A stretch of DNA of 64,000 nucleotides from contig CAVZLW010000007.1 of NCBI GenBank assembly GCA_963776285.1, positions 185,415-249,414 on the forward strand, given 5' to 3'. Source of the DNA: an uncultured Chloroflexia bacterium (GTDB taxonomy: Bacteria > Chloroflexota > Limnocylindria > Limnocylindrales > CSP1-4). Positions 1,261 through 21,715 of the stretch are shown here, piece by piece. Position 1 is the first letter of the stretch. Every line of letters begins with the position of its first letter. The position numbers and the translations under genes were made by a program. Below the pieces are notes generated by a model, which had not been told where the DNA came from, ran no database searches, and saw only the letters and a program-made list of their open reading frames with translations.

Positions 1261-1506
1261 ATGAGCAACGTCCGCGACCGCCACGAGCCCGGGCGCTACG
1301 AGATCCGCGTCGGAGGCCACCTCGAGGCCCGGTGGGTCGCCTGGTTCGAAGGGCTCAGCCTCCGCCGCGACGGCGACGGAACCACCGTCATCCACGGCCC
1401 CATCACCGACCAGGCCGCCCTGCACGGCCTGCTCGCCAAGGTCCGCGACACGGGCCTGCCACTGGTCTCGGTGACCTGCGTCGAGGCTGACACCTCGACC
1501 GACTGA
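1261..1506 (+). CDS. 81-aa conserved hypothetical protein (paralogue A of the 21470..21715 protein)
   Basis: ATG with AAGGAG RBS. The C-terminal motif DQAALHGLLAKVRDTGLPLVSV is shared with the ORF at 21470..21715 (DQAAVHGLLAAIRDLGLSLVTV), and both products are 81 aa. Confidence 0.6.
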   Translation: MSNVRDRHEPGRYEIRVGGHLEARWVAWFEGLSLRRDGDGTTVIHGPITDQAALHGLLAKVRDTGLPLVSVTCVEADTSTD

Positions 1507-1571
1507 CCGGGGCCCGTCGGCCCCCAATCCGCTGGGTTCCCAGCGTCCCTCACAGAAGAAGGAGACCCGCC

Positions 1572-2291
1572 ATGACCTTCGCTCGCAAGTCAGCGCTCGC
1601 CGTCGGCGTGCTGTTCATCCTCACGTTCATCACCTCGATCGGCGCCGTGTTCGCCTACGGGCCCGCCCTCAGCGACCCCGCCTACATCCTTGGCGCCGGC
1701 CAAGACGGCCGCGTGTACCTCGGGGCGTTCCTCGAGCTGATGCTCATCCTCACCAACATCGGCTGCGCAGTCGTCCTGTTCCCGTTCCTCAAGCGCCAGA
1801 ACGAGGCCCTCTCGCTCGGCTACGTCGCCGCCCGGATCGTCGAGTGCACGTTCATCCTGGTCGGCCTCCTCAGCGTGCTGGCCATGGCGAGCATGCGCGG
1901 CGCGGCGACGGGCGCCGACGCGAGCTCGCTCAACCTGATCGGCAAGACGCTCCTCGCCATCCACGACTGGACGTTCCTGCTCGGCCCGGGCTTCACCGAC
2001 GGGATCGGGACCGGGATGATCCTGGGCTACCTGATGTGGCGCTCCGGCCTGGTCGGGCGGCGCATGGCGCTCCTCGGCCTCATCGGCGGCACGATGCTCG
2101 CCGCCTCCGGCGCCGCGGTGCTGCTGGGCTTCATCCCGCGAGGCGGCGCGGTGCAGGGCATCGCGACCATCCCCGAGGTCATCTGGGAGGCGTTCCTCGG
2201 CCTGTACCTGACCTTCAAGGGCTTCCAGTCGGCCCCGGTCCAGGCGCTCGAGAGCCGGACCGTCGGGATCGCGCGGGCGCTCGCCGCCTGA
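1572..2291 (+). CDS. DUF4386-family membrane protein
   Basis: RBS AAGGAGA. The 239-aa product has 5-6 TM segments and N-terminal motifs typical of DUF4386 (ALAVGVLFIL, IGAVFAYG). Confidence 0.65.
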   Translation: MTFARKSALAVGVLFILTFITSIGAVFAYGPALSDPAYILGAGQDGRVYLGAFLELMLILTNIGCAVVLFPFLKRQNEALSLGYVAARIVECTFILVGLLSVLAMASMRGAATGADASSLNLIGKTLLAIHDWTFLLGPGFTDGIGTGMILGYLMWRSGLVGRRMALLGLIGGTMLAASGAAVLLGFIPRGGAVQGIATIPEVIWEAFLGLYLTFKGFQSAPVQALESRTVGIARALAA

Positions 2292-2385
2292 CGGGAGGGG
2301 CCCCGAAGCCAGTCTCCGGGGCCCCTCCGCATCCGCTGACGCCCGGCGTCGCCAACCCCACGAGACAGGCAGAGGAGACACCACG

Positions 2386-3423
2386 ATGACCAACGAGACC
2401 GTCGGCAGTCGTGCCGACCACCAGCACCCCGTCCGGACCGTTCCCCGGTTCGCGCTCCGCATCTTCTGGCTGCTGCACCGCGCGATGGTCCGGCTCAGCG
2501 GCCACCGGTTCGGCCTCAGTCGGCCCGAGGCCGGCGAGCGGTTCGGGATGCTGCGCCTCACCACGGTCGGGCGTCGCTCCGGGGCAACCCGGGTGGCGAT
2601 CGTCGGCTACTACGAGGACGGGGCCAACCTCGTCACCCTGGCGATGAACGGCTGGGGGCGCACGGAGCCGGCGTGGTGGCTGAACCTCCAGGCGAACCCC
2701 GACGCCACGGTTGAGCTGCCCGACGGCCCCCGAGCGGTGCGGGCCCGCGCCGCGTCGGGCGAGGAGCGCGACCGGCTCTGGGCCAGGTTCCGCGACTATC
2801 CCGGCTGGGCCCCCGACATCGATGCCTCCGCGGCGCTGCGGCCCACCCCCACGGCGGTGATCGTCCTCGAGCCGCGTGATGCCCTGCCCGAGACCACCGC
2901 CCCGGCGACGAACGTCCCGGCGGACGTCCCCGCCCCGGCCGTCCAGACAGTGCTTACCGCGGACGCTCACTCGCCTCGCCGGCTGGCGCTCCGCCACCTC
3001 TGGATCGTCCCGGGGCTCGGCATCGCCCTCTTCGCCAACGCGCAGTCCACGACCTACGGCGTCGGCCTGGTGCCGCTCCTGCTGTTCGGGATCGTGCCCC
3101 ACCTCCCAGCCCTCGCGGGGATCGGTCAGCCGCTCGGTCGCGGCCAGCTGGCCCCGCGCGCCGTCCCGCTCTTCAACGCGATGCACCAGCCGGCCCTGCC
3201 GCTGGCGGTGGCAGTGCTTGCCGCCACAGGCGTTCTGTCCCCGTTCTGGCTGGTGGGCGCCCTGGCGTGGCTCAGTCACATCGTCGTGGACTGGGGCTTC
3301 GCCAAAGGAATCCGGACCCGCGACGGATACGTTCGGGGCTCCGCCGGCGCCGGACGCCGAGCGCACCGAGGCGAAACGACCAGCGGACCCTCGGCCCAGG
3401 TCGGCGTGTCGGCTCCAGCATGA
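2386..3423 (+). CDS. Deazaflavin(F420)-dependent nitroreductase (Ddn/DUF385-like) fused to a C-terminal DUF4260-like membrane domain
   Basis: RBS GAGGAGA. The N-terminal ~160 aa match the Ddn/PNPOx-like nitroreductase family (RLSGHRFG, LLRLTTVGRRSGATRV, ANPDATVEL). The C-terminal ~130 aa are hydrophobic and resemble the DUF4260 protein at 34873..35283. The two parts are in one continuous frame. Confidence 0.65.
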   Translation: MTNETVGSRADHQHPVRTVPRFALRIFWLLHRAMVRLSGHRFGLSRPEAGERFGMLRLTTVGRRSGATRVAIVGYYEDGANLVTLAMNGWGRTEPAWWLNLQANPDATVELPDGPRAVRARAASGEERDRLWARFRDYPGWAPDIDASAALRPTPTAVIVLEPRDALPETTAPATNVPADVPAPAVQTVLTADAHSPRRLALRHLWIVPGLGIALFANAQSTTYGVGLVPLLLFGIVPHLPALAGIGQPLGRGQLAPRAVPLFNAMHQPALPLAVAVLAATGVLSPFWLVGALAWLSHIVVDWGFAKGIRTRDGYVRGSAGAGRRAHRGETTSGPSAQVGVSAPA

Positions 3424-3445
3424 AGGAATGCAGTGCCCGGCCCCG

Positions 3446-3790
3446 GGGGCCGGGCACCGTGCGAACCCGCAGGATGACGGTCGCGTCCCACAGTTGCCAG
3501 GCCGAGTCGCCCCGCGATTCACCCCCCAAGCACGGGCTGAGCGTGGGCCCTCATATGGTCGACGCTGTTTCGCAAGCAGCAGCGCCAATCCGCCGCCTTG
3601 TCTGAGCGAAGGGATGGTTGTAGCCACGGGTGTAGCCAGACCGGTGGACGTCCTGCCGTCGCGGTGGACGGTTTGGGGCCTCTCGGGCGGCGTTTCATGC
3701 TCGCCAGGGGCCTCAGTGGACGCCGTCGGATGCCCGCTGTTCGGCTTCGTAAACAGCAGGTCCTCGGTTCAAATCCGAGTGTCGGCTCCA
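3446..3790 (+). ncRNA. ssrA: Candidate tmRNA (ssrA) / tRNA-like element
   Basis: The 3' end is ...GGTCCTCGGTTCAAATCCGAGTGTCGGCTCCA, with T-stem CTCGG/CCGAG, T-loop TTCAAAT and acceptor strand CGGCTCC plus discriminator A. A perfect complementary 5' strand GGGGCCG lies 345 nt upstream at 3446, giving a G3:U70 pair, which is tRNA-Ala/tmRNA identity. No canonical 73-76-nt tRNA can be folded from this 3' end. The only in-frame tag candidate ends ...AVSQAAAPIRRLV-TGA at 3603-3605, which is atypical. Three unpaired nt between T-stem and acceptor, and no smpB nearby. Confidence 0.4.
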
Positions 3791-4053
3791 GCCTTTGCCC
3801 CATGTCCTCTGCATGGCTGGCAACGCCTCGTGTGACCACTGAGTCCGCGACTTTCGCCGCCGGGGTTGCATACAGTGGCGGCGCGAACGGGCACGGCTCC
3901 CACGAACACGCCTGCGGTCAATCCCGCCGCGAGGATCACCGCCGCAGACGACGGCCGAACGACGCCACGCGATGGGGAGTGAGCGACACCGCCACCTGCC
4001 TGGTCTTGGTGACTTCCAGGAGTGCGATGGGTGGTGACCATCGTTTCGAGCGG

Positions 4054-4485
4054 TCAGGCGGCTGCTGCCGCGTCCGGCCGTCCGAACAAACCGAGCTGGA
4101 TCAGCATCCCGAGTTGATCCGGGACGCCCCAGTGCTCGACGATCTTGCCGTCAGCGAAGCGGATGACGTCGATCACCGTGATCTCGAATGACCGGCCGGT
4201 CGCCGGTCGGCCCATGACGTTGCCCGTGTTGACACCCGTCCCGCGACAGCGGATCCAGACCGTGTCGTCGCTCGCGATGAGGTCGACGATCACCAGCTCG
4301 AAGTCGCTGAACCAGGACCGGAGGGTCCGGATCGTCTCCTTGACACCCTCGATCCCCGGCTTCAGTCCGCGCTGATTCTCGACCGAATCCGGTGAGACGA
4401 GCTCATCGCAGACGCCCAGGTTGCCTCCGGTGAACCCTTCGGCGATCAGCCGGCGGGTGGCGGCGATGTTCTCTTGGACCGACAT
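4054..4485 (-). CDS. SnoaL-like / ester cyclase family protein
   Basis: The 143-aa product starts MSVQENIAATRRLIAEGF... with an NTF2-like polyketide-cyclase signature. RBS GGGAGGGGA. Confidence 0.7.
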   Translation of the reverse strand: MSVQENIAATRRLIAEGFTGGNLGVCDELVSPDSVENQRGLKPGIEGVKETIRTLRSWFSDFELVIVDLIASDDTVWIRCRGTGVNTGNVMGRPATGRSFEITVIDVIRFADGKIVEHWGVPDQLGMLIQLGLFGRPDAAAAA

Positions 4486-4513
4486 GAGGTCCCCTCCCTA
4501 CTACACTGGCGCT

Positions 4514-4545
4514 ATAGTTGCAACTGGAGTGATACTCTAGTTGCG
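4514..4545. promoter_or_regulatory. Candidate TetR operator in divergent SnoaL-like/TetR intergenic region
   Basis: Perfect palindrome AGTTGCAACT at 4516-4525, with a repeated half-site TAGTTGC at 4538-4544 just before the TetR start codon. Confidence 0.35.
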
Positions 4546-5180
4546 TGAGTCCTGTCAAGCCCCCGTCCGACGGATCCCGCGACCGCCCGCGTCGTCGCGA
4601 CCGGGCCGTGACGCGGGCACGGATGCTCGATGCCGCCCGGCGCCTGTTCCTCGAGCGCGGCTATGCGGCGACGACCATTCCGGAGATCGCCGCCGCGGCC
4701 GGCGTCGCCGTGCCCACGATCTACTGGGCGTTCGGATCCAAGCGGGCGCTGGTCAGCGAGATCCGCCGGGCCTGGTTCGAGGCGGCTGAGACGGGCGCCC
4801 GGCTCCGCGAGGTCCTGGCGATCGACGAGCCGGGCGCCAGGCTGGACGCCTACGCGGCATTCATGGGCAACCAGTGGGCGACCGGCGCGGAAGCGCTCGC
4901 GATCCAGCAGGACGCCATGCGTGCCGATCCGGAGATCGCCACCGAGATCGCCGCCGTCCTGGCGGAGCGCGCCGAGCGGCTGAAGAAGGTGGTGGTGCCA
5001 CTCGCGCCGCACCTGCGCGAACCGCTCACGGTCGAGACGGCCCACGACCTCCTGCTGGCGCTCAGCATGCTGGAGGTCTACAGGGAGCTGCGCGACCGTG
5101 GATGGTCGGACGCGCGGTACCAGGCCTGGCTGGGCCGCGTCCTTCGAGAGCAGCTGCTCGGGCGCGAGTCAGCTGGCTGA
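4545..5180 (+). CDS. TetR/AcrR family transcriptional regulator
   Basis: GTG start. The N-terminal HTH is AVTRARMLDAARRLFLERGYAATTIPEIAAAAGVAVPTIYWAFGSKRAL. Confidence 0.8.
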   Translation: MSPVKPPSDGSRDRPRRRDRAVTRARMLDAARRLFLERGYAATTIPEIAAAAGVAVPTIYWAFGSKRALVSEIRRAWFEAAETGARLREVLAIDEPGARLDAYAAFMGNQWATGAEALAIQQDAMRADPEIATEIAAVLAERAERLKKVVVPLAPHLREPLTVETAHDLLLALSMLEVYRELRDRGWSDARYQAWLGRVLREQLLGRESAG

Positions 5181-5461
5181 CGGAACGGCGGCACGTGGAC
5201 CGCTCACGGTGCCGGAGGACGCCGACGGGCAGATCGACCAGCGGCGCCGGACCTCGCTTCGTTACGTCGTCACCTCGGGGTCGGTGGCGAGAACTGGCCC
5301 CATCTGGCGCGGCGTGAGGAGCACGTTGACCAAAGAAGAGGCGAGCCTCGGCACCTCCCCGTGAGCTGCTGGAGGTGCCGCGGGCGGACATCCTGGCGCT
5401 CGTTCGGATTGCCGAGCTGCTCGCCGAGAGCGCGGACCCGGCAGCGATGATGGAGCACGCC

Positions 5462-5610
5462 TTCCCGACGGTGATCGGCCGAGACTTCGCCGGTGTCGTC
5501 GAGGCCGTCGGGCCGGGCCGGAGCGATGTCGCAGTCGGCGACGAGGTGCTCAGCTTCATGACGGCGATGCCGCCCCTCCACGACGGCACCTACGCCGAGG
5601 TCATCGCCGG
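5462..5610 (+). pseudogene. Fragment of a zinc-type alcohol dehydrogenase / quinone oxidoreductase (MDR) gene
   Basis: Only ~50 aa of the MDR catalytic-domain signature are present (PTVIGRDFAGVVEAVGPGRSDVAVGDEVLSF...DGTYAEVIA) inside a 146-aa ORF whose flanks do not continue the family. Confidence 0.45.
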
Positions 5611-5747
5611 GCACGTAGGCGGGATCTGCAACGGGCGCGGCCCAGCCGCGTGCTTCGGTTCAGAACGGGCCACGACGAACCTGCCGTCGGCGACCAGGAT
5701 CTGCCCGATCCAGAGCAGCAGGTTCGCGTTCATTCGTTCGTTCCGAT

Positions 5748-6374
5748 TCAGATGCCGACCGGCTCGCGGACGAGCACGACCGTGGTTCGCCCAGGCCGCC
5801 ACTCGCCGAGAATGAGGAGGACCTTGTCGAGGGAGGTGTCGACACCCAGGCGCTCCCGGACCCGGTCGTTCTCCCAGGGGAAGACGACCTCGCGGATCCG
5901 TCGCATCGCGGCATCGAGGTCGGGCACGAGCTTCTGGCTGCCGACGACGAGGATCAGGCGCCCCGCGCCCGCGGCATAGGCACCAAGCTGGCTGCCCGTG
6001 GCCGAGGCCGCCACGAGCGTGCCGTCGGCGGTGATCGCGGCGACGCTGCCCAGCATGAAGTCTGGCGCAGCAGAGAGCTTGCGGATCTCGCGGCCCTGCG
6101 TGGCCCGGTCCATCGCCATCATGCGCGGCCGGATCGCGTCGTACCGGCCCGACTCGACGAGCTCGCCGTAGAGCTCGATATCCTCGAGCGTCTTCGACTT
6201 GCCGGTGTGGACCTCCGCGCCCTCGGGGATCAGGCCAAGGACGAACGCGCGCGCCGCGTCGCCGTCGTCGACGACGACCGTCTCGATGTTGTGCGCGCGG
6301 AGGGCGGCCGCGACCTCGTCCAGGCGATGTGCGGCGGACGCATTGCCGGTGCGGCCCTGGTCGTCGGCGGTCAC
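5748..6374 (-). CDS. LUD-domain (LutC/YkgG-like lactate-utilisation) protein
   Basis: The 208-aa product has a LUD_dom-like C-terminus (LILVVGSQKLVPDLDAAMRRIREVVFPWEN). GTG start overlaps the upstream stop as GTGA. Confidence 0.65.
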   Translation of the reverse strand: MTADDQGRTGNASAAHRLDEVAAALRAHNIETVVVDDGDAARAFVLGLIPEGAEVHTGKSKTLEDIELYGELVESGRYDAIRPRMMAMDRATQGREIRKLSAAPDFMLGSVAAITADGTLVAASATGSQLGAYAAGAGRLILVVGSQKLVPDLDAAMRRIREVVFPWENDRVRERLGVDTSLDKVLLILGEWRPGRTTVVLVREPVGI

Positions 6375-6796
6375 AGCGGGAGTCCGACCGCCACGACGCC
6401 GACAGCCACGCCGATCGCCAGGCTGGCAACGCCGATCTGGTTCGAGCGTGCACGGTCGCGCCGCCGGGCCTCGGCGTCCTCGACTTGCACGGTCTGCCCG
6501 AGTTCGCCGAAGTTGTAGATCCCCCGCGACCCGAAGCCGGCGCAGAACCGGAAACGGGCCTGGAGATACCCCGACGCGGCAATGGCCGTCGGGAGGGCGA
6601 CCAATAGCCGGACCGGCCGCGGCGCGCCCACCCCGACGAGCCCGCCGAGCATGACGACCGCGGCACCGAGCCCGACGTGGCCCGCCCGGCGCCGCCTTGC
6701 GATCTCCGCAGGGCCGATGTTGCAGACCCCTGGCAGGTAGGCATCGCCGGACGCAGCCGCCGGCGTGCTGGGTGTCGTCTGGGACGCGAGCGTCAT
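6371..6796 (-). CDS. Hypothetical small membrane protein
   Basis: ~141 aa from MTLASQTT. The start ATG overlaps the TetR stop (ATGA) and the stop overlaps the LUD gene start, so the three genes look co-translated. Two to three hydrophobic segments. Confidence 0.5.
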   Translation of the reverse strand: MTLASQTTPSTPAAASGDAYLPGVCNIGPAEIARRRRAGHVGLGAAVVMLGGLVGVGAPRPVRLLVALPTAIAASGYLQARFRFCAGFGSRGIYNFGELGQTVQVEDAEARRRDRARSNQIGVASLAIGVAVGVVAVGLPL

Positions 6797-7464
6797 CGTG
6801 TGCTCCCTGTCTGATCTGTGGTGCTGTTCATCCGCCGCATCGCCCGCATGACCTGGCGCGGCGTGGGGGGTGGCGGCAGCGGGCTTGCGCCGCCGGCGCG
6901 GAACGCCTGGAGCATGAGGGCGGCGAACCGCCGCCACGCATCGGGCGCGTCTTCGCCGGATCCCTGGACGACACCGGCGTTGGCCATGAGCAGCAGGACG
7001 AGGTCCTCGGGGACGAAGTCGGCCCGCAACGCTCCGGCCTCCTGGGCCCGCTCGATCATGCGGACGGACAGCTCGTAGCCGCGCGCCCGGTGCGCCTCCA
7101 AGGCCCTCGCGGTTGGGAACGTCCTCGTGAGCACGTCCTTGAGGCCGCGGTCGGCGGCCTGCATCCCGCAGACGCGCTCGACGTAGGCGCAGAAGCCTGC
7201 CCAGGCGTCCGGGGCCTCGAGGGCCTCCTCGGCCGCCTGGGCATAGTCGGCCACCCTTCGCTCGAAGCAGGCGGCAATCAGGTCTTCGCGGGTCGGGAAC
7301 CGACGGTAGAGGGTGGCGATGCCCACCCCAGCGCGCCCGGCCACATCCTCGAGGGGCACGTCGAGGCCTCGCTCGGCGAATGCGACCCCTGCGGCCTCCA
7401 CGATCCGTCCCCGGTTGCGCTCGGCGTCGACGCGCAGGGGCTTGCTGGCATCGGCGGTTTCCAT
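6793..7464 (-). CDS. TetR family transcriptional regulator
   Basis: Start METADASKPL. HTH is RNRGRIVEAAGVAFAERGLDVPLEDVAGRAGVGIATLYRRFPTREDL. It is the first gene of a three-gene co-oriented cluster. Confidence 0.75.
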   Translation of the reverse strand: METADASKPLRVDAERNRGRIVEAAGVAFAERGLDVPLEDVAGRAGVGIATLYRRFPTREDLIAACFERRVADYAQAAEEALEAPDAWAGFCAYVERVCGMQAADRGLKDVLTRTFPTARALEAHRARGYELSVRMIERAQEAGALRADFVPEDLVLLLMANAGVVQGSGEDAPDAWRRFAALMLQAFRAGGASPLPPPPTPRQVMRAMRRMNSTTDQTGSTR

Positions 7465-7479
7465 GCCCTCACCATACCC

Positions 7480-7536
7480 CGAATCGGAGGACAGCCTCCA
7501 TTTGTGTCTTCGATCCACCGTATGCCTCCGATTCGC
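7480..7536. promoter_or_regulatory. 11-bp perfect inverted repeat (candidate TetR operator) upstream of the TetR gene at 6793..7464
   Basis: CGAATCGGAGG (7480-7490) ... CCTCCGATTCG (7526-7536). A second imperfect palindrome GGGATCCCGCAAAG...CTTGCGGGCGGGATCC lies at ~7700-7745, before the hydrolase start. Confidence 0.35.
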
Positions 7537-7760
7537 CCTCCAGTCGGTTACTCCCGCGGTCAGTCGGAGCCTGGAGTCGCGGAGTTGGACGCTGCTTCGG
7601 GGATGGGATGCGAAGAAGGCCGCCGGTGCTGCCGCCGCGCTGGCTCCGAGCTCATCGGGTGCCTGTGGGCTCACGCTCAATGTCTGTGCGGCGCGTCGCC
7701 GGGATCCCGCAAAGCCCATACTCTTGCGGGCGGGATCCGGCAAGGGCCATAATCGTCGCG

Positions 7761-8642
7761 ATGGCGATCCCTCTTCCCCCTCCGGTTGCAGGCGTCCCGT
7801 TCGATGTCGAGACCGCCGACGGCCGGGTCGCCGGCTACCGGCTGGGCGAGGGGCGGACGGTCCTGCTCCTGCACAGCTTCAATGCGGCCGGAGCAGGCGT
7901 GGAGCTCGCGTCCCTGGCGTCACGGTTGGCCGAACACCGGCGGGTCGTGCTGGTCGACTGGCTCGGCTTCGGCACCTCGGAACGTCCGGACGCGCCGTAC
8001 GGCTGGGCGCTCTACGGCGAGCAGCTCGAGCAGATCCGGGTCGCCGCCCTGGGGCCTGGTGAGACCTCCGTCGATGTCGTCGCGCTCTCGTTGCCCGGCC
8101 AGTATGTCGTTGTCGCCGCCGCCGGGCATCCGGAACGCTTCGGTCGCATCGTCCTCATCAGCCCCACCGGGTTCGGCCGCTTCAAGGGGAGCGCCGGTCG
8201 CACATCCCAGTATCTCTACCGGGCCCTGCGCCTGACGGGGATCGGCCGCCTGTTGTTCGCGGTCCTCGCCCGGCGCCGGGTGATCCGCTGGTTCCTGCGC
8301 CAGACGTTCGCGGATCCGGAGCGGGTCCCGCGGCAGTACGAACGGTACTGCTGGCGGACCGGCCAGCAGCCAGGCGCGTTCCGAGCCCCGCTGGCGTTCG
8401 TCTCCGGGCTGCTGAACGATCCTCGGGCGGAGGAAGCTTACGGGCTGCTCGCGAACCCCACGCTCCTCGTCTTCGGGGATCATCCGCGCTTCACGGACCC
8501 CGCGGCCTCGGAGGCGCTCGTCGCCGCGAACACCAGCCTGCGAACGGTCACGATCGAGCACGCCGGAGACCTTCCCCAGCTGGAGCAGCCCGATGAGACG
8601 GCCGCCGTGGTCGAGGGGTTCCTGCGCAACGAGGCCGGCTGA
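7761..8642 (+). CDS. alpha/beta hydrolase fold protein
   Basis: 294 aa. Oxyanion region VLLLHSFNAAG and a nucleophile-elbow-like LSLPGQ. Divergent from the TetR gene. Confidence 0.7.
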   Translation: MAIPLPPPVAGVPFDVETADGRVAGYRLGEGRTVLLLHSFNAAGAGVELASLASRLAEHRRVVLVDWLGFGTSERPDAPYGWALYGEQLEQIRVAALGPGETSVDVVALSLPGQYVVVAAAGHPERFGRIVLISPTGFGRFKGSAGRTSQYLYRALRLTGIGRLLFAVLARRRVIRWFLRQTFADPERVPRQYERYCWRTGQQPGAFRAPLAFVSGLLNDPRAEEAYGLLANPTLLVFGDHPRFTDPAASEALVAANTSLRTVTIEHAGDLPQLEQPDETAAVVEGFLRNEAG

Positions 8643-8671
8643 TCGGATCTCGTGACGCGGCACGCGACGGA

Positions 8672-10237: not shown

Positions 10238-10614
10238 CCTTCGCAGGTGGCGACGATCGACCAGTCCACCCCTGCTCAGGCCGCAGGAGTGGGTGTGAGA
10301 ACCGTCATGACCGCGACGAAGGCGTCGCTCGCCGCGGTCCACCACGACAAGCGGCCGGTCGCCAAGGGCGGGGAGACCGCTCGCCACATCAAGGATGCCA
10401 TCGAGCCGCGCGAACTCGTCACCGAAGCTCGACACGCCCGACTGCATCCTGGTCAGGAATAGAGAAGCGGTTGGCGCCGCAGTCAGTCAGAGTCCACGCC
10501 ACATAGCCGTCCGACATCGTCGCCAGGACGGTCATGCGCCCGCGATGATCTCGCGATCGGGTGGGCAGTTCCGGAAGTCACGGGTCTCCGTTCTGAAGCA
10601 CAGAGGAGCGTGTC

Positions 10615-12968: not shown

Positions 12969-13512
12969 CCGTTGTCCGGTGCGCTGGTTGACGATGAACG
13001 ACTGGTCCACGCAGGCCTCCTCGGCAGCTATCGACACGACGCTGGGTCCCGCCTCAGGAGCGGCCCTCGCGGGGCGGCCGGCGGCGCAGCCCGACCGGCG
13101 TCGGTGCCGGTGTCCCGGCAGACGTCGAGCGGCGCGTCGAGGTGGATCGTCTCGCGAATGCGGCCCATGCCAGGCTCCCCACCAATCCCGAGTCTCCGGG
13201 TCGATCCCGATGGCCCCAAGTGGACCACGGCGGGTCCCGAATCCGGCAGGCGCTTCGTTCGAATCGGGCACTCGCCGAAGCCTCCGCCGGGGCGATGCCC
13301 CGGCTCCCACCAACCGCCGGCAGCAGGAGGCGCTCTGCTCCCCCGGCACGAGCCCCGCCACCGCCTCCTGCCGCAATGTCTGTCTCCTGATCGGGAGGCG
13401 TCGGAGCGTGGCGGGGCCGCGACGTGTCATCCGCGAGAGCATCGAAGATGACGGACCGCGATCTCGGGCCCGATCGGCATGTCGCACAATTGGCGGAAGA
13501 GGTGAGTCCGTG

Positions 13513-14244
13513 CCGAGCAGCCCCGACCGACACCCCGCCAGCGACCGCGGCGACGAGATCCCGAGCGTGCCGATCCGCGGGCTCGAGCGCACGGCGCCCC
13601 GCTCGGCGGGCCTCGCCGGGATCGTCTTCTCGGTCCTGTTCGTGGCATCCCTGCTGCTGGCCGGCTCCCGGCCACCGGAAGGTCTCGGCGACGCCGCATT
13701 CGTCGAGTGGTTCCAGGCGCAGGGGCTGGCCGCGGTCACCTTCTCGGCGCTCTACCTGGCGCCGTTCGCGGGGATCGCCTTCCTGTGGTTCATCGGCGTC
13801 ATCCGTCACCGCATCGGCGCTGGTGAGGATCAGTTCTTCGCGACGGTGTTCCTGGGAAGCGGCCTGCTCTTCGTCGCGATGTACTGGGCCGCGGCAGCCG
13901 TGCTCGCGAGCCTCGTCGCCGGCAACCGCTACGATGCCGCCCCGGCACTGGGCGCCGGTCGCATCGAGGAAGTGCGCTCGGTCGCCTTCTCCTTCCTGTT
14001 CGTGCTGGCTGCGCGCGCCGCTGCCGTCTTCATGATCACGACCTGCACGATCGCCCGGCGCACGGCGATCTTCCCGCGGCCGCTGACGCTCGCGGGCTAC
14101 GCCATCGCCATCCTGATGCTCCTGAGCCTCTCGTTCCTGCAGTGGATCGTGCTGCTCTTCCCGGTATGGGTCTGCGTGGCAAGCGGCTACATCCTCGTCG
14201 CCGAGCTGCGCACCCTCCGGGCGGCCCCCGGGCCGGCTGGCTGA
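13513..14244 (+). CDS. Hypothetical integral membrane protein
   Basis: GTG start with RBS GGAAGAGG. ~244 aa with 5-6 TM helices. The longer ATG-initiated ORF upstream is low-complexity. Confidence 0.5.
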   Translation, partial: PSSPDRHPASDRGDEIPSVPIRGLERTAPRSAGLAGIVFSVLFVASLLLAGSRPPEGLGDAAFVEWFQAQGLAAVTFSALYLAPFAGIAFLWFIGVIRHRIGAGEDQFFATVFLGSGLLFVAMYWAAAAVLASLVAGNRYDAAPALGAGRIEEVRSVAFSFLFVLAARAAAVFMITTCTIARRTAIFPRPLTLAGYAIAILMLLSLSFLQWIVLLFPVWVCVASGYILVAELRTLRAAPGPAG

Positions 14245-14339
14245 CGCTCACCAGCGCGTCGCAGCGCCCCGGGTCGCGAGCTCGCCGTCGTCTTCCGACG
14301 GTCGGCACCGATCGACTCCCGGGCCATCGCCCCGGCGTA

Positions 14340-15093
14340 GGATCGCCGTAACGGCTCGGTCAGCCACGACGTCAAGGCGGTCTACACCTACTACCTGGGC
14401 TTCTTCGACGGCAACCCGGCGACGCTCCACCAGCTGCCGCCGGTCGAGGGGGCCAGGAAGACGGTCGAGTACATGGGCGGCGCGGACGCCGTCCTGGCGC
14501 GAGCCCGCGCCGACTTCGAGAAGGGGGAGTACCGCTGGGTCGCGCAGGCGGTGAACAACGTCGTCTTCGCCGACCCGGACAATGCCGAGGCCCGCGCACT
14601 CCAGGCGGACGCCCTCGAGCAGCTCGGCTACCAGGCCGAGAACGGGACCTGGCGCAACTTCTACCTCTCTGCGGCGAAGGAGCTCCGCGACGGCGTCACG
14701 AAGGCCGCGGTGCCGAGCACCGCCTCGACCGACCTTGCGCGGGCGATGCCGTCGGCGATGATCCTGGACTACGTCGCCGTCCGCCTCAACGGGCCGGGTG
14801 CCGCGGACCTCGCCTACGTCTTCGACCTGTCGCTCAGCGACGTCGGCGAAAGGTATCTGCTCGAGGTCGGCAACGGCGTGCTGAACTACACCAGGGACGC
14901 CACGGTCGACCATCCCACCGCGACGGTCACGCTCACGCGTCAGGCACTCGTGGGGATCGTGATGGGCCTGGCGACCGTCGAGGACCTGGTCGCGGGCGGG
15001 TCCGTCGCGATCGACGGCGATGGAGCGGCTTTCGCGGACTTCCTCGGCCTGCTCGACAGCTTCGAGTTCTGGTTCAACATCGCCACACCGTGA
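14340..15093 (+). pseudogene. C-terminal fragment of an alkyl/aryl-sulfatase (SdsA1/BDS1-type) gene; the MBL-fold catalytic N-terminus is absent
   Basis: Reading starts directly after a TAG at 14337. The product contains the dimerisation-domain signature VKAVYTYYLGFFDGNPATLHQLPPVEGARKTVEYMGGADAVLARARADFEKGEYRWVAQAVNNVVFADP and an SCP2-like C-terminus. The ~400-aa N-terminal domain is missing. Confidence 0.6.
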
Positions 15094-15224
15094 GGCTCTC
15101 GCGGCCCGCCGACCGCCCGTCGGCCGGCCCCGGCGGGCCAGGCTCGGATAGAGTGCGCGGCGGGCGCCCTCGCGTCCTCGCGTCCTCGCCTCGATGGACC
15201 ACAACCTGCTTCGGAGGACGGCAC

Positions 15225-16019
15225 ATGCGCCGCATGCTCATCGGACTGGGGATCATCACCATCGGCGTCGTGGGCGCGGCCTGCTCCTCGACCGGTGGTG
15301 GTGGTTCCGCCTCGGCGGGCGGGACCGGCGGCACGCTCGACGGCACCGCCTGGACCCTGAAGACCTACGCCGTCGGCGGCACCGCGACCCCGGTGCCCGC
15401 CGGCATGGTCATCGACGCGAAGTTCGCCGGGGGCAAGGTCTCGGGCTTCGCCGGCTGCAACGTCTACACCGCCTCGGCCACGATCTCCGGGTCGACGCTC
15501 AAGATCGGCCAGGCCGCGACCACGTCGATGGCCTGCGATGAGGCCGTCAGCAAGGTGGAGACGGCGTATCTCGCGAACCTTGCCCAGGCTGCGACGTTCA
15601 CCGCGACGGCCGACAGCCTCACGATATTCGGCAGCGACGGCAAGCAGCTGCTCGTCTACGCCGCGGCATCCGCCAACCCGCTCGAGGGCGAGTGGAACGT
15701 GACCGGATACAACAACGGCAAGCAGGCTGTCACGTCGCCGATCGCCGGCACGACGCTGACCGCCACCTTCACGGCCGACGGCCAGGTCGGTGGGAACGCC
15801 GGCTGCAACAGCTACCACGGTCCCTACAAGCTTGACGGCACCTCGCTGACCGTCGGTCCGCTCGTCACGACGCGCATGGCCTGCGACCAGGCGATCATGG
15901 ACCAGGAGACAGCGTTCCTGGCCGCGCTCCAGACGCCCACCAAGGTCGAGACGTCGGGAGCCACCGTGAGCCTGCGCGATGCGTCCGGCGCCACCCAGGT
16001 GGTCCTGGGCCCGAAGTGA
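15225..16019 (+). CDS. Lipoprotein with two tandem META (HslJ-like, DUF306) domains
   Basis: RBS GGAGGA. Signal peptide with lipobox MRRMLIGLGIITIGVVGAAC. Two repeats each carry GxAGCN..., TxMAC and (D)EA/QA motifs. Confidence 0.8.
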   Translation: MRRMLIGLGIITIGVVGAACSSTGGGGSASAGGTGGTLDGTAWTLKTYAVGGTATPVPAGMVIDAKFAGGKVSGFAGCNVYTASATISGSTLKIGQAATTSMACDEAVSKVETAYLANLAQAATFTATADSLTIFGSDGKQLLVYAAASANPLEGEWNVTGYNNGKQAVTSPIAGTTLTATFTADGQVGGNAGCNSYHGPYKLDGTSLTVGPLVTTRMACDQAIMDQETAFLAALQTPTKVETSGATVSLRDASGATQVVLGPK

Positions 16020-16161
16020 CCGCCGCGTCGTACGTGGCACGACACGTCGATCGTGGTCGGAGAGGACGACGACCCGTATGCTCCTCGCGTCGTCGGCGCG
16101 ACAACCAGGGCCGCCCGGCCCGAGGTGGCTGTCCCTTCGCGCCGACGCGAGGAGGACGAGG

Positions 16162-16626
16162 ATGCCTTCGGCAACGCACACGGTGACGATCCATCGCCCG
16201 GCAAAGGAGGTGTTCTCCTTCGTCGCCGATGGCACGACCGCTCCCCGGTGGCGTCCGGGCGTGCTCGACATCACGCTCGCGTCGGGGTCCGGCGTCGGCG
16301 CGACCTACCGCCAGGGCGTCAAGGGACCGGGCGGCCGGCGCGTCGCCGCCGACTACGAGATCACCGTCTTCGAGCCCGACCGCAGGCTCGCCTTCCGGGC
16401 GATCGCGGGTCCGGTCCGGCCGACCGGCGAGTATCGCCTCGAGGAGACACCCGACGGGACGCGGCTGACCTTCTCGCTCGCCGTCGAGCTCTCGTTCTTC
16501 AAGCGGCTCGTGATGGCGGGCGCGGTCCAGAAGACGATGGACGCCGAAGCCTCGGCGACGGAGCGCCTGAAGCAGGTGCTCGAGGCGCAGGGGCCCGCCG
16601 CGACCGCAGGACCCGCCGGCGGCTGA
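16162..16626 (+). CDS. SRPBCC (polyketide cyclase/dehydrase-like) domain protein
   Basis: RBS GGAGGACGAGG. 154 aa (MPSATHTVTIHRPAKEVFSFVADGTTAPRWRPGV...). Confidence 0.7.
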   Translation: MPSATHTVTIHRPAKEVFSFVADGTTAPRWRPGVLDITLASGSGVGATYRQGVKGPGGRRVAADYEITVFEPDRRLAFRAIAGPVRPTGEYRLEETPDGTRLTFSLAVELSFFKRLVMAGAVQKTMDAEASATERLKQVLEAQGPAATAGPAGG

Positions 16627-17286
16627 GCCCGGCCTGGCCGCTGGAGGGCGCCCGACGATCGAGAACGTCGATCGTCCGGGCCAGTCGAGGACGGTGGACG
16701 CTGGGCTGTGTCGGGCGCAGCGGGACGCGTTCCCGGCCGTCCTGCCGACGTCGTCCAGCTCGAGGGTTGGCAGAGCCTACGACACCGCGGGTGCGGGAGA
16801 GCCATGCGCGCTCGCCCGGCGGTTGCGCACGAGTGCGCCGATCCAGATGAGCCCACCGGCGAGCAGGATCAGGGCCGGGATCCACGGCGTGGAGAGACCC
16901 AGCCAGGAGTCGGGGATCGTCGCCCAGTGATCCCAACGCCACCGGCCCGGCGGCCGGGCAGGTCGGCAGCGAGGTCGGTCCGGGCGGTACGACCACGAGC
17001 AGCAACTGCGCGCCTTCGGTGACTTCGAGCCGATCGCGCCACTGGACGATCTGCTCGACCGTCCGGCCTGGAAGTCGGCCAGGAGCTGCGAATAGGCAAG
17101 GGGCGGGCGCGCGGCGAATGGGCCGCGCGCGTCGATCACCCCGCCGATGATCCGGCCAGAGCAGGAAGCCCAGGCGATCCAGCGCGTGCGAGGCATTCGA
17201 CCAACCCTGGCTCGGGCGGCCCCTCCGCCCTCACACGATCTTCACGCACGCCACGGGTCAGGACAACGTGCCGATCGGCACAGACG

Positions 17287-17700
17287 TCAGGGCCGGCTCT
17301 CGGCCGCCCGCACGTCCTTGAGCCGGCGCCAGCCGCCCGCCCGGTTGTTCGCGACGATCTGTCTCAGGATGGCTGCCAGCGCCGTCGCGTTGATGGGCTC
17401 ACCCTGGCGGATCGCGATGGTCCGCGCGGTCAGGTTGTCGTGGCCACCGGTGATGATGCCGTCGGGGTCGGGGACGATGCCACCGTCGTACAGGAAGACG
17501 TTGACATGGTCCTTCGCCGCGAGCAGGGCGCAGATGTTGCCGTGCAGGACGAAGTAGGGACGGTTGGTCCGCTTGATCGTCTCGACGACCTCCGGGTCCG
17601 CCGCGTGAGCCAGCGCCCGAACCTCGCGGCAGATGGCCCGCTGCCAGTCCGGCAGCCCCTCGATGTAGGCGTCCACGCGCGGATCTGCCGTGTCGCTCAT
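17287..17700 (-). CDS. DUF1801 (YdhG-like) domain protein
   Basis: 138 aa (MSDTADPRVDAYIEGLPDWQRAICREVRALAH...KRTNRPYFVLHGNICALLAAKDHVNVFLYDG). Confidence 0.7.
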   Translation of the reverse strand: MSDTADPRVDAYIEGLPDWQRAICREVRALAHAADPEVVETIKRTNRPYFVLHGNICALLAAKDHVNVFLYDGGIVPDPDGIITGGHDNLTARTIAIRQGEPINATALAAILRQIVANNRAGGWRRLKDVRAAESRP

Positions 17701-17795
17701 CGCGCGATCATACGAGCCGACCTCGGCGATGGCGCAGGGTCGGCATCCGTCGCATCGGTCCCGGCACCGGAGCGCCGCCCTGGACCACGAGATCG

Positions 17796-18317
17796 TCAGT
17801 CCCCGCCCCCGGCGGGCGCGCCGGCCGGAACGGCGCTGAGCTCCGTGGCGATCGACGCGGCCCAGTCCCGCATCGCCGGCCAGTCTCGATGGTCTCCCCA
17901 GGGCGACGGGACCATCGAGACGATCCGCCGCTCGACGAAGCCGAGCTCCTTCTTGTCCGCCTTGCCGGGGAAGACCCGGTGCTCCCGTGCCCCGACGAGC
18001 TCGAGGAGCCTGGTGCCCTCGGCCGCGTCGGCGGGATCGACGATGTCGCGCCCGAGCGGCCCGCTCGAGAACAGCCACACGGAGCGCGTGCGCAGCGCAT
18101 CCGCGGAGCCCTTGACGAGGTCCCGAGCGGGCGCCATCCAGCGGCCCCAGTGGACCGCGCTCCCGACGATGACGGCGTCGTAGGGGGCGACGGACTCCAC
18201 GTCCTGGGCGTCGACGACCTCGACCTCGATGCCCGCCTCGCGGACGGTCTCGGCGATCCAGCCGGCGATCTCCCTGGTGCTGCCGTGCTTCGACGACACG
18301 GCGATCAGCGTCTTCAT
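17796..18317 (-). CDS. Flavodoxin-family protein
   Basis: RBS AGGAGGGAA. MKTLIAVSSKHGSTREIAGWIAE...YDAVIVGSAVHWGRWM. Confidence 0.75.
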   Translation of the reverse strand: MKTLIAVSSKHGSTREIAGWIAETVREAGIEVEVVDAQDVESVAPYDAVIVGSAVHWGRWMAPARDLVKGSADALRTRSVWLFSSGPLGRDIVDPADAAEGTRLLELVGAREHRVFPGKADKKELGFVERRIVSMVPSPWGDHRDWPAMRDWAASIATELSAVPAGAPAGGGD

Positions 18318-18369
18318 GGCGTTTCCCTCCTGGGACGCGCGACTCTTGCCCGGAGCTCGAGGCCGTCGC

Positions 18370-18918
18370 CTACGACACCGGCACGCGCGCGAGCGCGAGC
18401 GCCGGGTTGGCCATCTCCATCAGCGACACGCCGATGCCGTACGTCAGGAACCGCCCTTCGGGCACGAGCTCGATGACGCAGCTTCCGGCCTTTCGCGCCT
18501 CGGGCACGAGCTTCTCGAGGTCCTTCGACACCGAGCCGATGTCGAGCGAGCCGGCCGGGTGGACCGTCGCCCTGGCGTGGAAGGTGATGGTGGCCGGCGG
18601 GATGGGCGCAAGCAGCGCGAGGATGCCGCCGCGACGGACCGGCACGGTGACGGCGACCTGCTGGCCGGTCACGACCTGGCGCGCCTTCCAGCCATCCGCG
18701 GCGACTGCCACGAACAGCCGCCGGTTGGCGGTCCCGTACACGACACCGCTCGAGCGCGGCTCGCCCGCGGCGTTGACGTGGCTGACGACGGCGAACGAGG
18801 CCCTGGCGAGCGCCCGCCAGACCGCCTCGCTGCTCACGCGGGCCCTCTCGGTCGCAGTCTCGTTCGCTGCCGCGGCGGACGTGGTCGCCGGCAGCGCGCT
18901 CGTTCCGTTGGCGTTCAT
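18370..18918 (-). CDS. Pyridoxamine 5'-phosphate oxidase-family (F420/FMN-binding split-barrel) protein
   Basis: The core AVWRALARASFAVVSHVNAAGEPRSSGVVYG...RRLFVAVAADGWKARQV is PPOX-like. The Ala/Thr-rich N-terminal 25 aa may be N-terminal to the true start. Confidence 0.65.
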   Translation of the reverse strand: MNANGTSALPATTSAAAANETATERARVSSEAVWRALARASFAVVSHVNAAGEPRSSGVVYGTANRRLFVAVAADGWKARQVVTGQQVAVTVPVRRGGILALLAPIPPATITFHARATVHPAGSLDIGSVSKDLEKLVPEARKAGSCVIELVPEGRFLTYGIGVSLMEMANPALALARVPVS

Positions 18919-19077
18919 CGACGATGTCTCCAGCCCGGGTCACGGGGCGTCGCTCCTGCTCCGCCGTCGCATGACCCTCTCCCACCCTGCGGCTCAACCG
19001 CCACCCGGCGCATCCATCGTTGGACGGACGCGCTGGTTGGTTCTGGGGGGCGGGAGGAGAATGCGAAGCCCGAGGGC

Positions 19078-21231
19078 TCAGCCGAGCAGGCCGAGCTCCC
19101 GGCCCCGGGCAACAGCCTCGACCCGGTTCGCGGCCCCGAGCTTGCCCGAGATCGTGTGAAGGTGCGACTTGACGGTGCCCACGGTCACGAAGAGCTCTGC
19201 CGCGACCTGGCTGTTGGACCGCCCGAGGGCGACCAGGCGCAGGACCTCGAGCTCGCGCGCGGTGAGCTCCTCGACGAGAGGGTCGGGACCTTCGCCCTCG
19301 CGGCGACGGGGCTCGCGGCCGGCGTTCGCGAGCAGCGGGCCGATGCGCGCGAGCGTCGCCTGGGCGAGCCGCGCGCTCGGCGCGTCGCCGGCCGCTGTTG
19401 CGAGCTCGAGGGCGCGACGCGCGGCGGCCTCGGCGAGCTGGGGCTGCCCGAGATCGGCCCGGGCGCTGGCCATGACGGCCCAGACCGCTGCGCTGTCGGT
19501 CGCGCCCGACTCCCTCGGGGTCCGCTCGAGCTCCGCCTGGCACAGTCGGGCCGCCCGCTCGGGATCGCCGCGCATGATCGCGATCCTTGCCAGGTCGCCG
19601 ATCGTGCGCCCCACCGCGAGCGCGTTGCCGGCGGCCCGCAGGTCGGGCAGCGCGGCTTCGTAGGCCTCGGCAGCCGCGTCGAGGTCGCCGGCACGGATCA
19701 GCGCCACGCCGAGCAGCGCCGCGGCCGTGCCATGCAGCGTCGCCGCGGCGTCCTCCGGGAGCCCGGCAGGGACGAGGTCGCGCGCGAGGCGCGCCTGCGC
19801 GATCGCGGTGGCGCTGTCCCCTTCGAGCCCGGCGAGCTGCGAGCGGAGGAGAGCGAGCTGGGTGGGAATCGCCGGCCGCATCATCGGACCGCCGTCGTGC
19901 CCGTCGGCGAGCGCGCGTTCGGCGTCGGCGAGCCGCTCGGCGACTCCCTCGGTCTCGCCGGCGAGGAGAAGGCACCAGGCGTACGAGGCGCTGAGCTGGG
20001 CATGGCCGCGGACGACCTCCGGCGGCAGGGCGTCGAGCCACCGCCGGACCGTGCTCAGCTCGCCCGCATTGACGTGCCGTCCCGAGGCGACCGCGACGAT
20101 CCGGCTCGTGCGCTCGAGATCGCCGGACCGCAGCGCGTGGTCGATCGCCTCGTCGTCATCTCCGCGCTCCTCGTGCCAGGCCGACGCTCGCGCGTGCAGC
20201 TCGGCGACCTCGTCGGGACGGAGCGTCCGAAGCCGAGCGCGGAGAATCCCGGCGAAGAGCGCGTGATAGCGGTACCAGCGTCGCTCGTCGTCGAGCGGGG
20301 TGATCAGGAGGTTTGCGCGCTCCAGCCCTTCGAGGCGCGCCTGGCCCCCGGGCTCCCCCGTCACCGCCTCGCACAGCGGACCGCACAGGCGGTCGAGGAT
20401 CGAGGTGCGCAGGAGGAACTCCTGGGAGTCGCGCGGCAACCCGGCCAGGACCTCCTCGACGACGTAGTCGAGGATGTAGCGGTGGCTGGCCCCGAACCGC
20501 CGCACCAGGTCGGCATGATCGGGTCGGCCGCGCAGGGAGACCGCTGCCAGCCGCAGCGCCGCGGCCCACCCCTCGGTTCGGTCGGTGAGCTCGTCGATCT
20601 CCGACGGGGGGAGGTCAACCCCGGACGAGCGGACGAGCGAGGCAGCTTCGGCCGCGGTGAAGCGAAGGTGGTCCGCGCGGACTTCGAGGAGCTCGCCGCG
20701 GGCACGCAGGCGCGCCAGCGGAAGCGGCGGGTCGGCCCGGGTGGCGATCGCGAGACGGGCCCCGGGCGGGAGACGCTCGACGAGCGCCGCGACGAATCCG
20801 TGGATGGCCGCTTCGTCGATCACGTGGTAGTCGTCCAGCACCACGACGGCGCCGCCTCCTGCAGCGGCGAGGCGGTCGAGGACGTGGGCCAGGGCCAGCT
20901 CGGGATCGAAGGACCCGGCGTCGAACGCCCCCGTGTCCGCCCGTTCGCCGGCGAGCTGTGCCGTGGCCGCCGCGAGATAGCGCGCGAACCGGACGATGTC
21001 GTTGTCGCGCGCGTCCAGCGAGACCCACGCGCCCCGGACGTCCGGCTGACCCAGCCAGTCGGCGAGCAGGGTGCTCTTGCCGAACCCGGCGGGCGCCGAG
21101 ACGAGCACGAGTCGAGCGCCGGCGGAGGTGTCGAGCTGCGTCCGCAGCCGCTCGCGGTCGACGTGGCGCGTGCCTCGCGCCTGGACGCCGAGCTTCGTCG
21201 TGATCAGGGCATCTCGCCCTGGCATCTCCAT
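19078..21231 (-). CDS. Large LuxR-family (MalT/LAL-type) regulator: AAA/P-loop NTPase, helical repeats and C-terminal LuxR HTH
   Basis: Walker A LVLVSAPAGFGKSTLL. C-terminal LTARELEVLRLVALGRSNSQVAAELFVTVGTVKSHLHTISGKLG. Confidence 0.85.
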   Translation of the reverse strand: MEMPGRDALITTKLGVQARGTRHVDRERLRTQLDTSAGARLVLVSAPAGFGKSTLLADWLGQPDVRGAWVSLDARDNDIVRFARYLAAATAQLAGERADTGAFDAGSFDPELALAHVLDRLAAAGGGAVVVLDDYHVIDEAAIHGFVAALVERLPPGARLAIATRADPPLPLARLRARGELLEVRADHLRFTAAEAASLVRSSGVDLPPSEIDELTDRTEGWAAALRLAAVSLRGRPDHADLVRRFGASHRYILDYVVEEVLAGLPRDSQEFLLRTSILDRLCGPLCEAVTGEPGGQARLEGLERANLLITPLDDERRWYRYHALFAGILRARLRTLRPDEVAELHARASAWHEERGDDDEAIDHALRSGDLERTSRIVAVASGRHVNAGELSTVRRWLDALPPEVVRGHAQLSASYAWCLLLAGETEGVAERLADAERALADGHDGGPMMRPAIPTQLALLRSQLAGLEGDSATAIAQARLARDLVPAGLPEDAAATLHGTAAALLGVALIRAGDLDAAAEAYEAALPDLRAAGNALAVGRTIGDLARIAIMRGDPERAARLCQAELERTPRESGATDSAAVWAVMASARADLGQPQLAEAAARRALELATAAGDAPSARLAQATLARIGPLLANAGREPRRREGEGPDPLVEELTARELEVLRLVALGRSNSQVAAELFVTVGTVKSHLHTISGKLGAANRVEAVARGRELGLLG

Positions 21232-21469
21232 CCGGCGATCGGCCTCAGCTACGGGCGTCGGGACGGCACAGGCCTCCGGAAGTGTCCCGGCGGCGAACGC
21301 GTTCGCCCAGAGCCGTTCGACGCGACTTCACCCGAACCTTTGCCCAGGCGGGCCTCTTCGACGTTTCAACCACCCGGTCCATCCGCGGATAGATGTGCCG
21401 GCCGTTGGTTGAGCCCCACGCTCCGTGATGAGATCCGGCAGCACAAGACCGGAGCATGCGAGGTCCCCG

Positions 21470-21715
21470 ATGGCTCATTCGGTCCGCTACCAGGTCCGCG
21501 TGCGAGTGCAAGGGGAGCTCGATCCCGCCTGGTCGAGCGTGCTCTCGGATCTCGCCGTGGCGGCCGAGCCCGACGGAACGACGCTCGTCAGCGGGGAGCT
21601 GGCCGACCAGGCCGCAGTCCATGGGCTCCTCGCCGCGATCCGGGACCTCGGCCTGTCGCTCGTCACCGTCGAGACCGTCGCCGTCCCAGCGCCACAACCT
21701 CACGGAAGCACGTGA
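21470..21715 (+). CDS. 81-aa conserved hypothetical protein (paralogue B of 1261..1506)
   Basis: ATG with GAGG 9 nt upstream. Shares the GTT(L/V)..G...DQAA(L/V)HGLLA.(I/V)RD.GL.L(V/T)(S/T)V core with the ORF at 1261..1506. It is divergent from the LuxR gene. Confidence 0.6.
   Translation: MAHSVRYQVRVRVQGELDPAWSSVLSDLAVAAEPDGTTLVSGELADQAAVHGLLAAIRDLGLSLVTVETVAVPAPQPHGST

Follow-up and report, generated by a model that had tools for sequence, protein, structure and literature searches.

Small proteins of predicted ferredoxin-like fold paired with MalT-like LuxR regulators behind a putative activator-dependent promoter

Two paralogous small genes and their regulators

The window analyzed here is a stretch of 64,000 nucleotides (64 kb; G+C content, 72%) from an uncultured Chloroflexia bacterium (contig CAVZLW010000007.1, positions 185,415 to 249,414). 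It contains two related open reading frames (ORFs) of 81 amino acids (aa), copy A (1261..1506, plus strand) and copy B (21470..21715, plus strand), each lying close to the gene of a MalT-like LuxR regulator (LAL). These ORFs had been singled out in a first-pass annotation of the sequence, and both are present as it described them. The C-terminal core that it noted in the two products is likewise correct, and it is the signature of the whole family. At 46% identity over 65 residues (BLASTP, E 8e-19), the copies are true paralogues. A tblastn search of the window with both sequences revealed only these two copies; the match next in rank had an E value of 0.09.

Copies A and B are real coding genes, since they combine the third-position GC signature of a high-GC genome with Shine-Dalgarno sites and confident AlphaFold models. 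The GC fractions at codon positions 1, 2, and 3 equal 0.73, 0.49, and 0.94 for copy A and 0.80, 0.49, and 0.83 for copy B, and the sequences AAGGAG (A) and GAGG (B) are found 6 to 8 nt 5' of each ATG. For both products, AlphaFold predicts a beta-alpha-beta-beta-alpha-beta ferredoxin-like fold (predicted local distance difference test score of 84 for A and 87 for B), for which fold searches returned generic ferredoxin-fold matches only.

Copy A lies two genes 3' of regulator A (2..535, plus strand), a gene truncated by the window start, with a DUF2938 membrane protein gene (626..1126, plus strand; Pfam DUF2938, 9.8e-56) between them. The C-terminal part of regulator A that falls within the window matches GerE (1.6e-17) and, above the cut-off, TPR_MalT (1.2e-16), and AAA_16 is present in its orthologues. 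Copy B is monocistronic and transcribed divergently from regulator B, a LAL of 717 aa encoded on the minus strand (19078..21231) with Pfam matches to AAA_16 (2.5e-08), TPR, and GerE (5.2e-15). Both arrangements agree with the earlier annotation. In regulator B, a Walker B sequence (VVVLDD) was found by pattern match; the P-loop-like APAGFGKST was spotted by eye and does not match the strict pattern G..G.GK[ST]. Its TPR repeats match TPR_MalT weakly, and its 717-aa orthologues carry WHD_MalT. The neighboring regulators thus display the AAA_16 module, the MalT-type winged helix/TPR sensor, and the GerE helix-turn-helix (HTH) that define the LAL/MalT family.

The small proteins form a large family without a name

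A database search with copy A returned more than 3,100 clusters at 90% identity, all of them hypothetical or unnamed and none with a Pfam domain, while copy B retrieved 234 clusters, one of them identical. Using phmmer against 1.84 billion cluster representatives, 4,495 matches were obtained at an E of ≤1e-3 and 192 at an E of ≤1e-10. The former number is an upper bound because it includes beta-propeller false positives. Two of these (P0267 and P0306), whose many short repeats give them E values of about 1e-12 to 1e-14 with copy B, were rejected as family members: they are long DUF5122 beta-propeller repeat proteins that match via the DG..G motif. DUF5122 beta-propellers should be expected as a source of false positives for any profile of this family. 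Among the 150 matches listed, nearly all are 75 to 130 aa long. Members occur in the Actinomycetota, Chloroflexota, Cohnella (Bacillota), Methylomirabilota, Verrucomicrobiia, and Myxococcaceae. Carriers that can be cultured include Blastococcus jejuensis, Nocardioides panacisoli, Modestobacter, and Cohnella nanjingensis.

Conservation is strongest at G19, L21, and W25, in the DGTT turn, and in the segments D50-Q51-A52-A53-L54-H55-G56-L57-L58 and R62-D63-L-G65 in and around helix 2. Residues D50, Q51, A52, L54, G56, L58, R62, D63, G65, and L68 are each at least 90% conserved among 148 representatives of 50%-identity clusters. Pfam yielded no match for copy A or B at an E of ≤0.01, and for 40 diverse members at an E of ≤10 it gave a few weak, unrelated matches (BON_like and others), with neither ACT nor RAM among them. 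No NCBIfam model matched the small proteins, and a profile search of the PDB gave nothing below an E of 0.9.

Small genes are paired with LAL genes across phyla

To survey gene neighborhoods, profiles built from the window proteins and their relatives were searched against six-frame ORFs in two samples. The genome sample, for which one genome per species was scanned for relatives, comprised 80 loci, and the metagenome sample, scanned with an alignment seeded on a divergent low-GC family member, another 80. Pairing was counted only where 3.5 kb or more of DNA was available upstream of the small gene. Among the 74 genome loci of this kind, a LAL gene lies upstream on the same strand within 3 kb in 67 (within 600 bp in 52) and divergently in 1, giving 68 of 74. 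The 20 divergent metagenome loci that qualify all have one (19 upstream on the same strand within 3 kb, 1 divergent). In copy-B-type contexts, a divergent 717-aa LAL gene is found at about 240 bp in seven of seven independent cases. As a control within the same loci, the density of LAL 3' ends was compared near to and far from small genes: it is 169 per Mb up to a distance of 3 kb and 15.5 per Mb farther out.

The first-pass annotation had proposed that a conserved small protein is specifically paired with large ATP-dependent MalT-like LuxR regulators, and had named a lack of enrichment beside LuxR-family genes as the finding that would speak against it. The enrichment is massive, and the pairing is strongly supported. 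Judged by gene order, the adjacency of small gene and LAL is nearly obligate, 1:1, and family-wide. It is also seen in tandem: in seven loci (L027, L057, L069, L083, L100, L155, and L173), two full modules of regulator plus small gene, some of them back to back, lie within 10 to 15 kb, each small gene with its own regulator. This indicates that the whole module has been duplicated frequently.

In eight loci (L004, L016, L028, L041, L079, L084, L172, and L173), LAL genes are split over two or three frames in a manner resembling sequencing indels, and apparent fusions or truncations from these assemblies should not be trusted.

A four-box promoter precedes the small gene

An element of about 60 bp, with the consensus aAATCACCAC.TCAATCACCACATGTGGTGATGCCcgCTCACCACATCCGCTcCTAcCTT, was found in 103 of 171 regions upstream of small genes. 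It contains the palindrome ATCACCACATGTGGTGAT, centered near position -43.5, and further half-sites near -60 and -25. The palindrome is spaced as in class II activator sites and in the lux box. No -35 sequence is recognizable. At a single fixed offset, 102 of the 103 elements carry nAnnnT; TAnnnT is found there in 78 and almost never at neighboring offsets. Among nine short-leader loci listed, several have an in-frame ATG about 6 to 7 nt 3' of this hexamer, a signature of leaderless transcripts that fixes the position of the transcription start. By these sequence features, the four-box element is a real promoter with a fixed -10, and some relatives are leaderless.

Allowing up to three mismatches, the 18-bp palindrome has 94 matches in 1.87 Mb of locus DNA. 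In 90 cases, a small gene follows within 300 bp. Of the remaining matches, three directly follow a LAL gene (in two of these a gene intervenes before the small gene, and in L098 the box lies about 350 bp upstream of it), and one precedes an MMPL gene. The latter belongs to locus L074, where a second complete four-box promoter (13207..13290) stands before an MMPL transporter gene (13296..15461) without a small gene. The regulon may therefore have more than one promoter.

In the window, the promoter of copy A (1134..1192, plus strand) matches the consensus four-box element, with box 1 AATCACCCC (1134-1142), the palindrome ATCACCAGATGTGGGGAT (1147-1164), box 4 CTCACCAC (1170-1177), and a -10-like GACCTT (1187-1192); 0.01 such elements are expected by chance. 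From this arrangement, transcription of copy A is predicted to start near 1199. A further putative LAL-box promoter (519..564, plus strand), read from the sequence, overlaps the last codons and stop of regulator A, 5' of the DUF2938 gene. It consists of a degenerate palindrome ATCACCAGACGATGTGAT (519-536), the box CTCACCAC (542-549), and the -10 hexamer TAGGTT (559-564). No sigma-70 consensus promoter was found between 400 and 3600 in the window. The simpler pattern CTCACCAC-N9-TAnnnT has four matches in the window against 0.15 expected, two of which are in locus A; the other two, at 31042 and 53352, lack the palindrome and were taken as chance.

Operator boxes change with the recognition helix of the regulator

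The boxes vary between loci in step with the HTH of the adjacent regulator. Where the recognition helix is of the type T-x-R-T/S-H-T, the palindrome (up to four mismatches) is present for 86 of 101 regulators, compared to 0 of 24 for three other helix classes. Those classes have boxes of their own. In the "KGHN" class, the boxes read CAACAC (CAATAC in two loci) and keep the four-box arrangement, again with TAnnnT after it. Direct repeats of GTATCCTTTTGG characterize the "KKH" class, and boxes of the GTAAAC type are found in the "KAHT" class. In the main class, the four boxes switch together, tracking two helix positions. TCACCAC accompanies helices of the form SLNT..HTK(N), with N (H in five) in 55 of 61; TCATCAC goes with SL(A/P/S)T..HT(R/Q/S) in 15 of 17; and TCCCCAC goes with SLST..HTK(A/S) in 7 of 7. 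Regulator A, whose HTH recognition region reads VVSLNTVRTHTKNIYA, belongs to the helix class that co-occurs with TCACCAC boxes.

Taken together, the adjacency, the promoter, the geometry of the boxes, and their covariation with the recognition helix indicate, at the level of sequence, that the adjacent LAL directly activates the small gene. The small gene is very probably the dedicated and constant first target of its LAL.

Variable cargo genes follow the small gene

Downstream of the small gene, DUF4386 is the commonest cargo, directly following it in 58 of 81 genome loci compared to 18 of 47 divergent metagenome loci. Other downstream genes encode zinc-type dehydrogenases, MMPL or ABC exporters, DUF6326, DUF2306, DUF998, DJ-1, and CMD proteins, epimerases, FMN reductases, Rce1-like proteins, and an unnamed four-helix membrane protein. 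Regulator and small gene are constant, and the cargo is variable. Its content (membrane DUFs, quinone and flavin reductases, and MMPL/ABC exporters) gives a hint that membrane-active or redox-active compounds are what the module responds to.

In locus A, copy A is followed by a DUF4386 membrane protein gene (1572..2291, plus strand; Pfam, 1.1e-38) and, as further cargo of the same gene string, by a gene resembling F420H2-dependent quinone reductases (2386..3423, plus strand; Pfam F420H2_quin_red, 3.7e-16). Homologues of the latter come after DUF4386 in many loci. Its C-terminal match to DUF4260, a membrane domain by annotation, is weak and below the cut-off. In L002 (8350..9579), an F420H2-dependent quinone-reductase-like domain is fused to DUF4386. 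These two cases suggest that the reductase is membrane-anchored cargo.

In B-type relatives, the unnamed membrane protein, of about 140 aa, is encoded 3' of the small gene, its gene starting at the small gene's stop, which suggests that the two are translationally coupled. It is absent from the window, where copy B appears to have lost its cargo, as an AlkZ-like DNA glycosylase gene (21780..22916, minus strand) and a SnoaL-like gene (22986..23399, minus strand), both converging on copy B, occupy the place that the membrane-protein gene has in relatives.

The small domain is also found fused to membrane regions. In three clusters (P0265, P0391, and P0392; 323 to 331 aa; 65 to 67% identity), encoded on contigs of 1.4 to 2.6 kb, two small domains flank a membrane region with several hydrophobic stretches. 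Further fusions join the small domain to a transmembrane region (P0393), DUF6326 (P0395), or DUF4386 (P0394 and L135). The fusions P0264 and P0394 may reflect lost stop codons. The only in-frame fusion of a LAL to the small protein, in L079, was rejected, its LAL being split over several frames in a frameshift-ridden assembly.

A possible signaling role for the small protein

The best explanation of these data, which we consider moderately probable, is a widespread and previously unannotated module of three parts, of which copies A and B would be two paralogous instances. The LAL, a STAND ATPase of the MalT type that binds DNA through its GerE/LuxR domain, would act on an activator-dependent promoter bearing its own binding boxes. 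The leading gene under this promoter would encode a protein of about 80 aa with a ferredoxin fold, and variable cargo would come after it, including small polytopic membrane proteins such as DUF4386 and DUF2938. Being the sole constant product of a variable regulon and duplicating with its regulator, the small protein would most likely be an integral signaling component of the module. It could act as a feedback modulator that binds the LAL, with the membrane cargo providing an input that captures or releases it. The physical feedback on the LAL is a tentative element of this proposal. With still less confidence, we consider a fuller version, in which the small protein is the obligate partner of a cross-phylum clade of MalT-like STAND regulators: induced by the LAL, it would bind back to the nucleotide-binding/sensor region and be captured or released by membrane proteins, so that the pair would form the sensor. 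If true, this would represent a previously unrecognized two-protein design of LAL sensors.

A role as co-regulator or ligand-binding sensor, as the first-pass annotation had suggested, is plausible given the ACT/RAM-like fold of the models and the 1:1 pairing, and the persistence of the small gene without cargo at copy B speaks for a partner of the LAL. Several observations weigh against this proposal. The natural fusions of the small domain join it to membrane domains and not to the regulator, and they point to a role with the membrane cargo at least equally with a co-regulator role. A nearby LAL is missing in a few loci (L059 and L076), and in L071 and L077 it lies 5.4 kb away. Shared ancestry partly confounds the operator-HTH covariation and inflates the counts. 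Finally, in a mirror-tree comparison, the partial correlation between small protein and LAL is 0.60 given DUF4386, that between small protein and DUF4386 is 0.05 given the LAL, and DUF4386 follows the LAL equally closely (0.62). With its long sequence, the LAL could just be the best available measure of phylogeny, leaving a partner of the LAL and a partner of DUF4386 unseparated. The two roles could coexist if partners are switched as in PspF/PspA/PspBC or MalT/MalK, with membrane proteins retaining or freeing a small protein by which the activator is modulated.

The strongest rival confines the small protein to the membrane cargo (DUF4386, DUF6326, the B-type protein of about 140 aa, and the like), to which it would contribute a cytoplasmic accessory domain or subunit without acting on the LAL, the adjacency being an effect of the regulon. 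It would account for the membrane fusions, for the suggested translational coupling in B-type loci, and for the frequency of DUF4386 directly downstream in the genome loci. However, the membrane partner comes from many unrelated families, is often swapped for soluble reductases or transporters, and is absent at copy B. In divergent metagenomes, moreover, DUF4386 is next to the small gene in fewer than half of the loci, whereas the LAL is found in all of those counted. Some of the membrane fusions also derive from error-prone long-read assemblies and possibly reflect lost stop codons. We regard this explanation as unlikely.

More improbable is a stand-alone effector without a regulatory role, one that sequesters or transforms a toxic compound reduced or exported by the regulon. 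The detoxification- and efflux-flavored cargo (F420H2 quinone reductase, zinc-ADH-type oxidoreductases, FMN reductase, DJ-1, CMD, MMPL, and ABC exporters) is in keeping with such a function, and the conserved polar residues D50, Q51, H55, R62, and D63 in or beside helix 2 could form a site. Yet the small protein resembles no enzyme or binding-protein family in Pfam, NCBIfam, or the PDB sequences, and a generic effector would not be expected to hold strict 1:1 pairing with a diverging LAL across phyla while the cargo changes.

It is barely credible that the repeated boxes are an RNA element of the regulator transcript (alternative hairpins, an attenuator, or a terminator) instead of an operator: pairing of the inverted box with one or another of three direct boxes would resemble alternative stems, but the boxes lie upstream of the -10 positioned by leaderless relatives and hence outside the small-gene transcript, there is no U-tract and no Rfam match for the box element, and protein recognition is favored over RNA structure because direct repeats unable to base-pair change in concert with the other boxes, tracking the HTH.

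A reading of the locus as a defense system, with a STAND sensor driving a toxic membrane effector, was also considered and rejected, as nothing beyond the domain types speaks for it. PADLOC gave no match for the small proteins, DUF4386, or DUF2938, and matched LALs via the HTH only.

Comparison with known regulatory systems

The Actinomycetota and Chloroflexota abound in LAL/MalT-like regulators, and many antibiotic gene clusters are under their control. Beyond MalT, to our knowledge, little has been described of their signals, binding sites, or partners. The regulators beside the small genes share the MalT domain order, namely, AAA_16, WHD_MalT, the TPR_MalT sensor, and the GerE HTH. MalT-dependent promoters lack a good -35 and have several short asymmetric boxes, direct and inverted, beside the -35 region. 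Here, in contrast to MalT, the box is TCACCAC. We know of no conserved small ferredoxin-fold product of a first gene described for MalT or for the LALs of antibiotic clusters.

The lux box, a palindrome of about 18 to 20 bp centered about 42 to 44 bp upstream of the transcription start, is bound by a GerE-type HTH. The palindrome at -43.5 resembles it in position, but here two extra half-sites are present, and a STAND ATPase takes the place of the acyl-homoserine-lactone receptor.

The proposed feedback is reminiscent of two known circuits, that of TraR, which induces its anti-activator TraM, and that of PspF and PspA. The shared scheme is an activator gene beside an operon from which a first or early product would bind back to the activator, membrane proteins being a possible input. 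The likeness of both to the LAL module is limited to circuit logic, with no relationship in sequence or fold. TraM is helical, whereas the small protein is predicted to form a beta-alpha-beta-beta-alpha-beta sandwich and has no anti-activator match. In fold and size, the closest parallels are stand-alone RAM/ACT modules of 70 to 80 aa (the RAM domain of Lrp/AsnC, the small subunit of AHAS, and the C-domain of NikR), regulatory ligand-binding units that work with larger partners; the small protein has no sequence match to ACT/RAM models.

A literature search found only unrelated LAL, LuxR, and small-protein systems and nothing describing the small-protein family, its pairing with LALs, or the operator; nor did it yield anything pertinent on DUF4386. 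What appears to be new, and previously unnoticed, is a constant small-protein component together with an operator code on a MalT-type activator and its regulon. A large LAL clade now has a precise predicted operator, a code relating recognition helix to box, a promoter geometry, and a constant small product, and the small gene with its promoter offers a testable handle on these regulators. The small-protein family, with thousands of members and no name in family libraries, merits a family entry.

Further features of locus B

The intergenic region between regulator B and copy B contains an inverted repeat, CCATC-N4-GATGG, at 21378..21395 (plus strand), where it reads TCCATCCGCGGATAGATG. In seven copy-B-type intergenic regions, the half-sites are conserved and the spacer is variable; we consider this repeat a candidate operator of locus B only. 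A possible stem-loop, TCCGG(C)-loop-(A)CCGGA (21434..21453, plus strand), is found immediately 5' of the ribosome-binding site of copy B, within what is presumably the leader of its transcript. Its TCCGG and CCGGA arms are kept while the loop varies in seven sequences (the window, L003, L084, L086, L167, L168, and L172). In the minimum-energy fold of 21426-21470, these arms are not paired, and the leader hairpin is likewise listed as a candidate only.

Directly 3' of regulator B and on the same strand, the window encodes a 182-aa ORF (18370..18918, minus strand) without a Pfam match. At the equivalent position, L003 and L168 have an unannotated gene of 186 to 188 aa followed by a flavodoxin-like gene. 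Possibly, the 717-aa LAL has a conserved companion in this 182-aa ORF.

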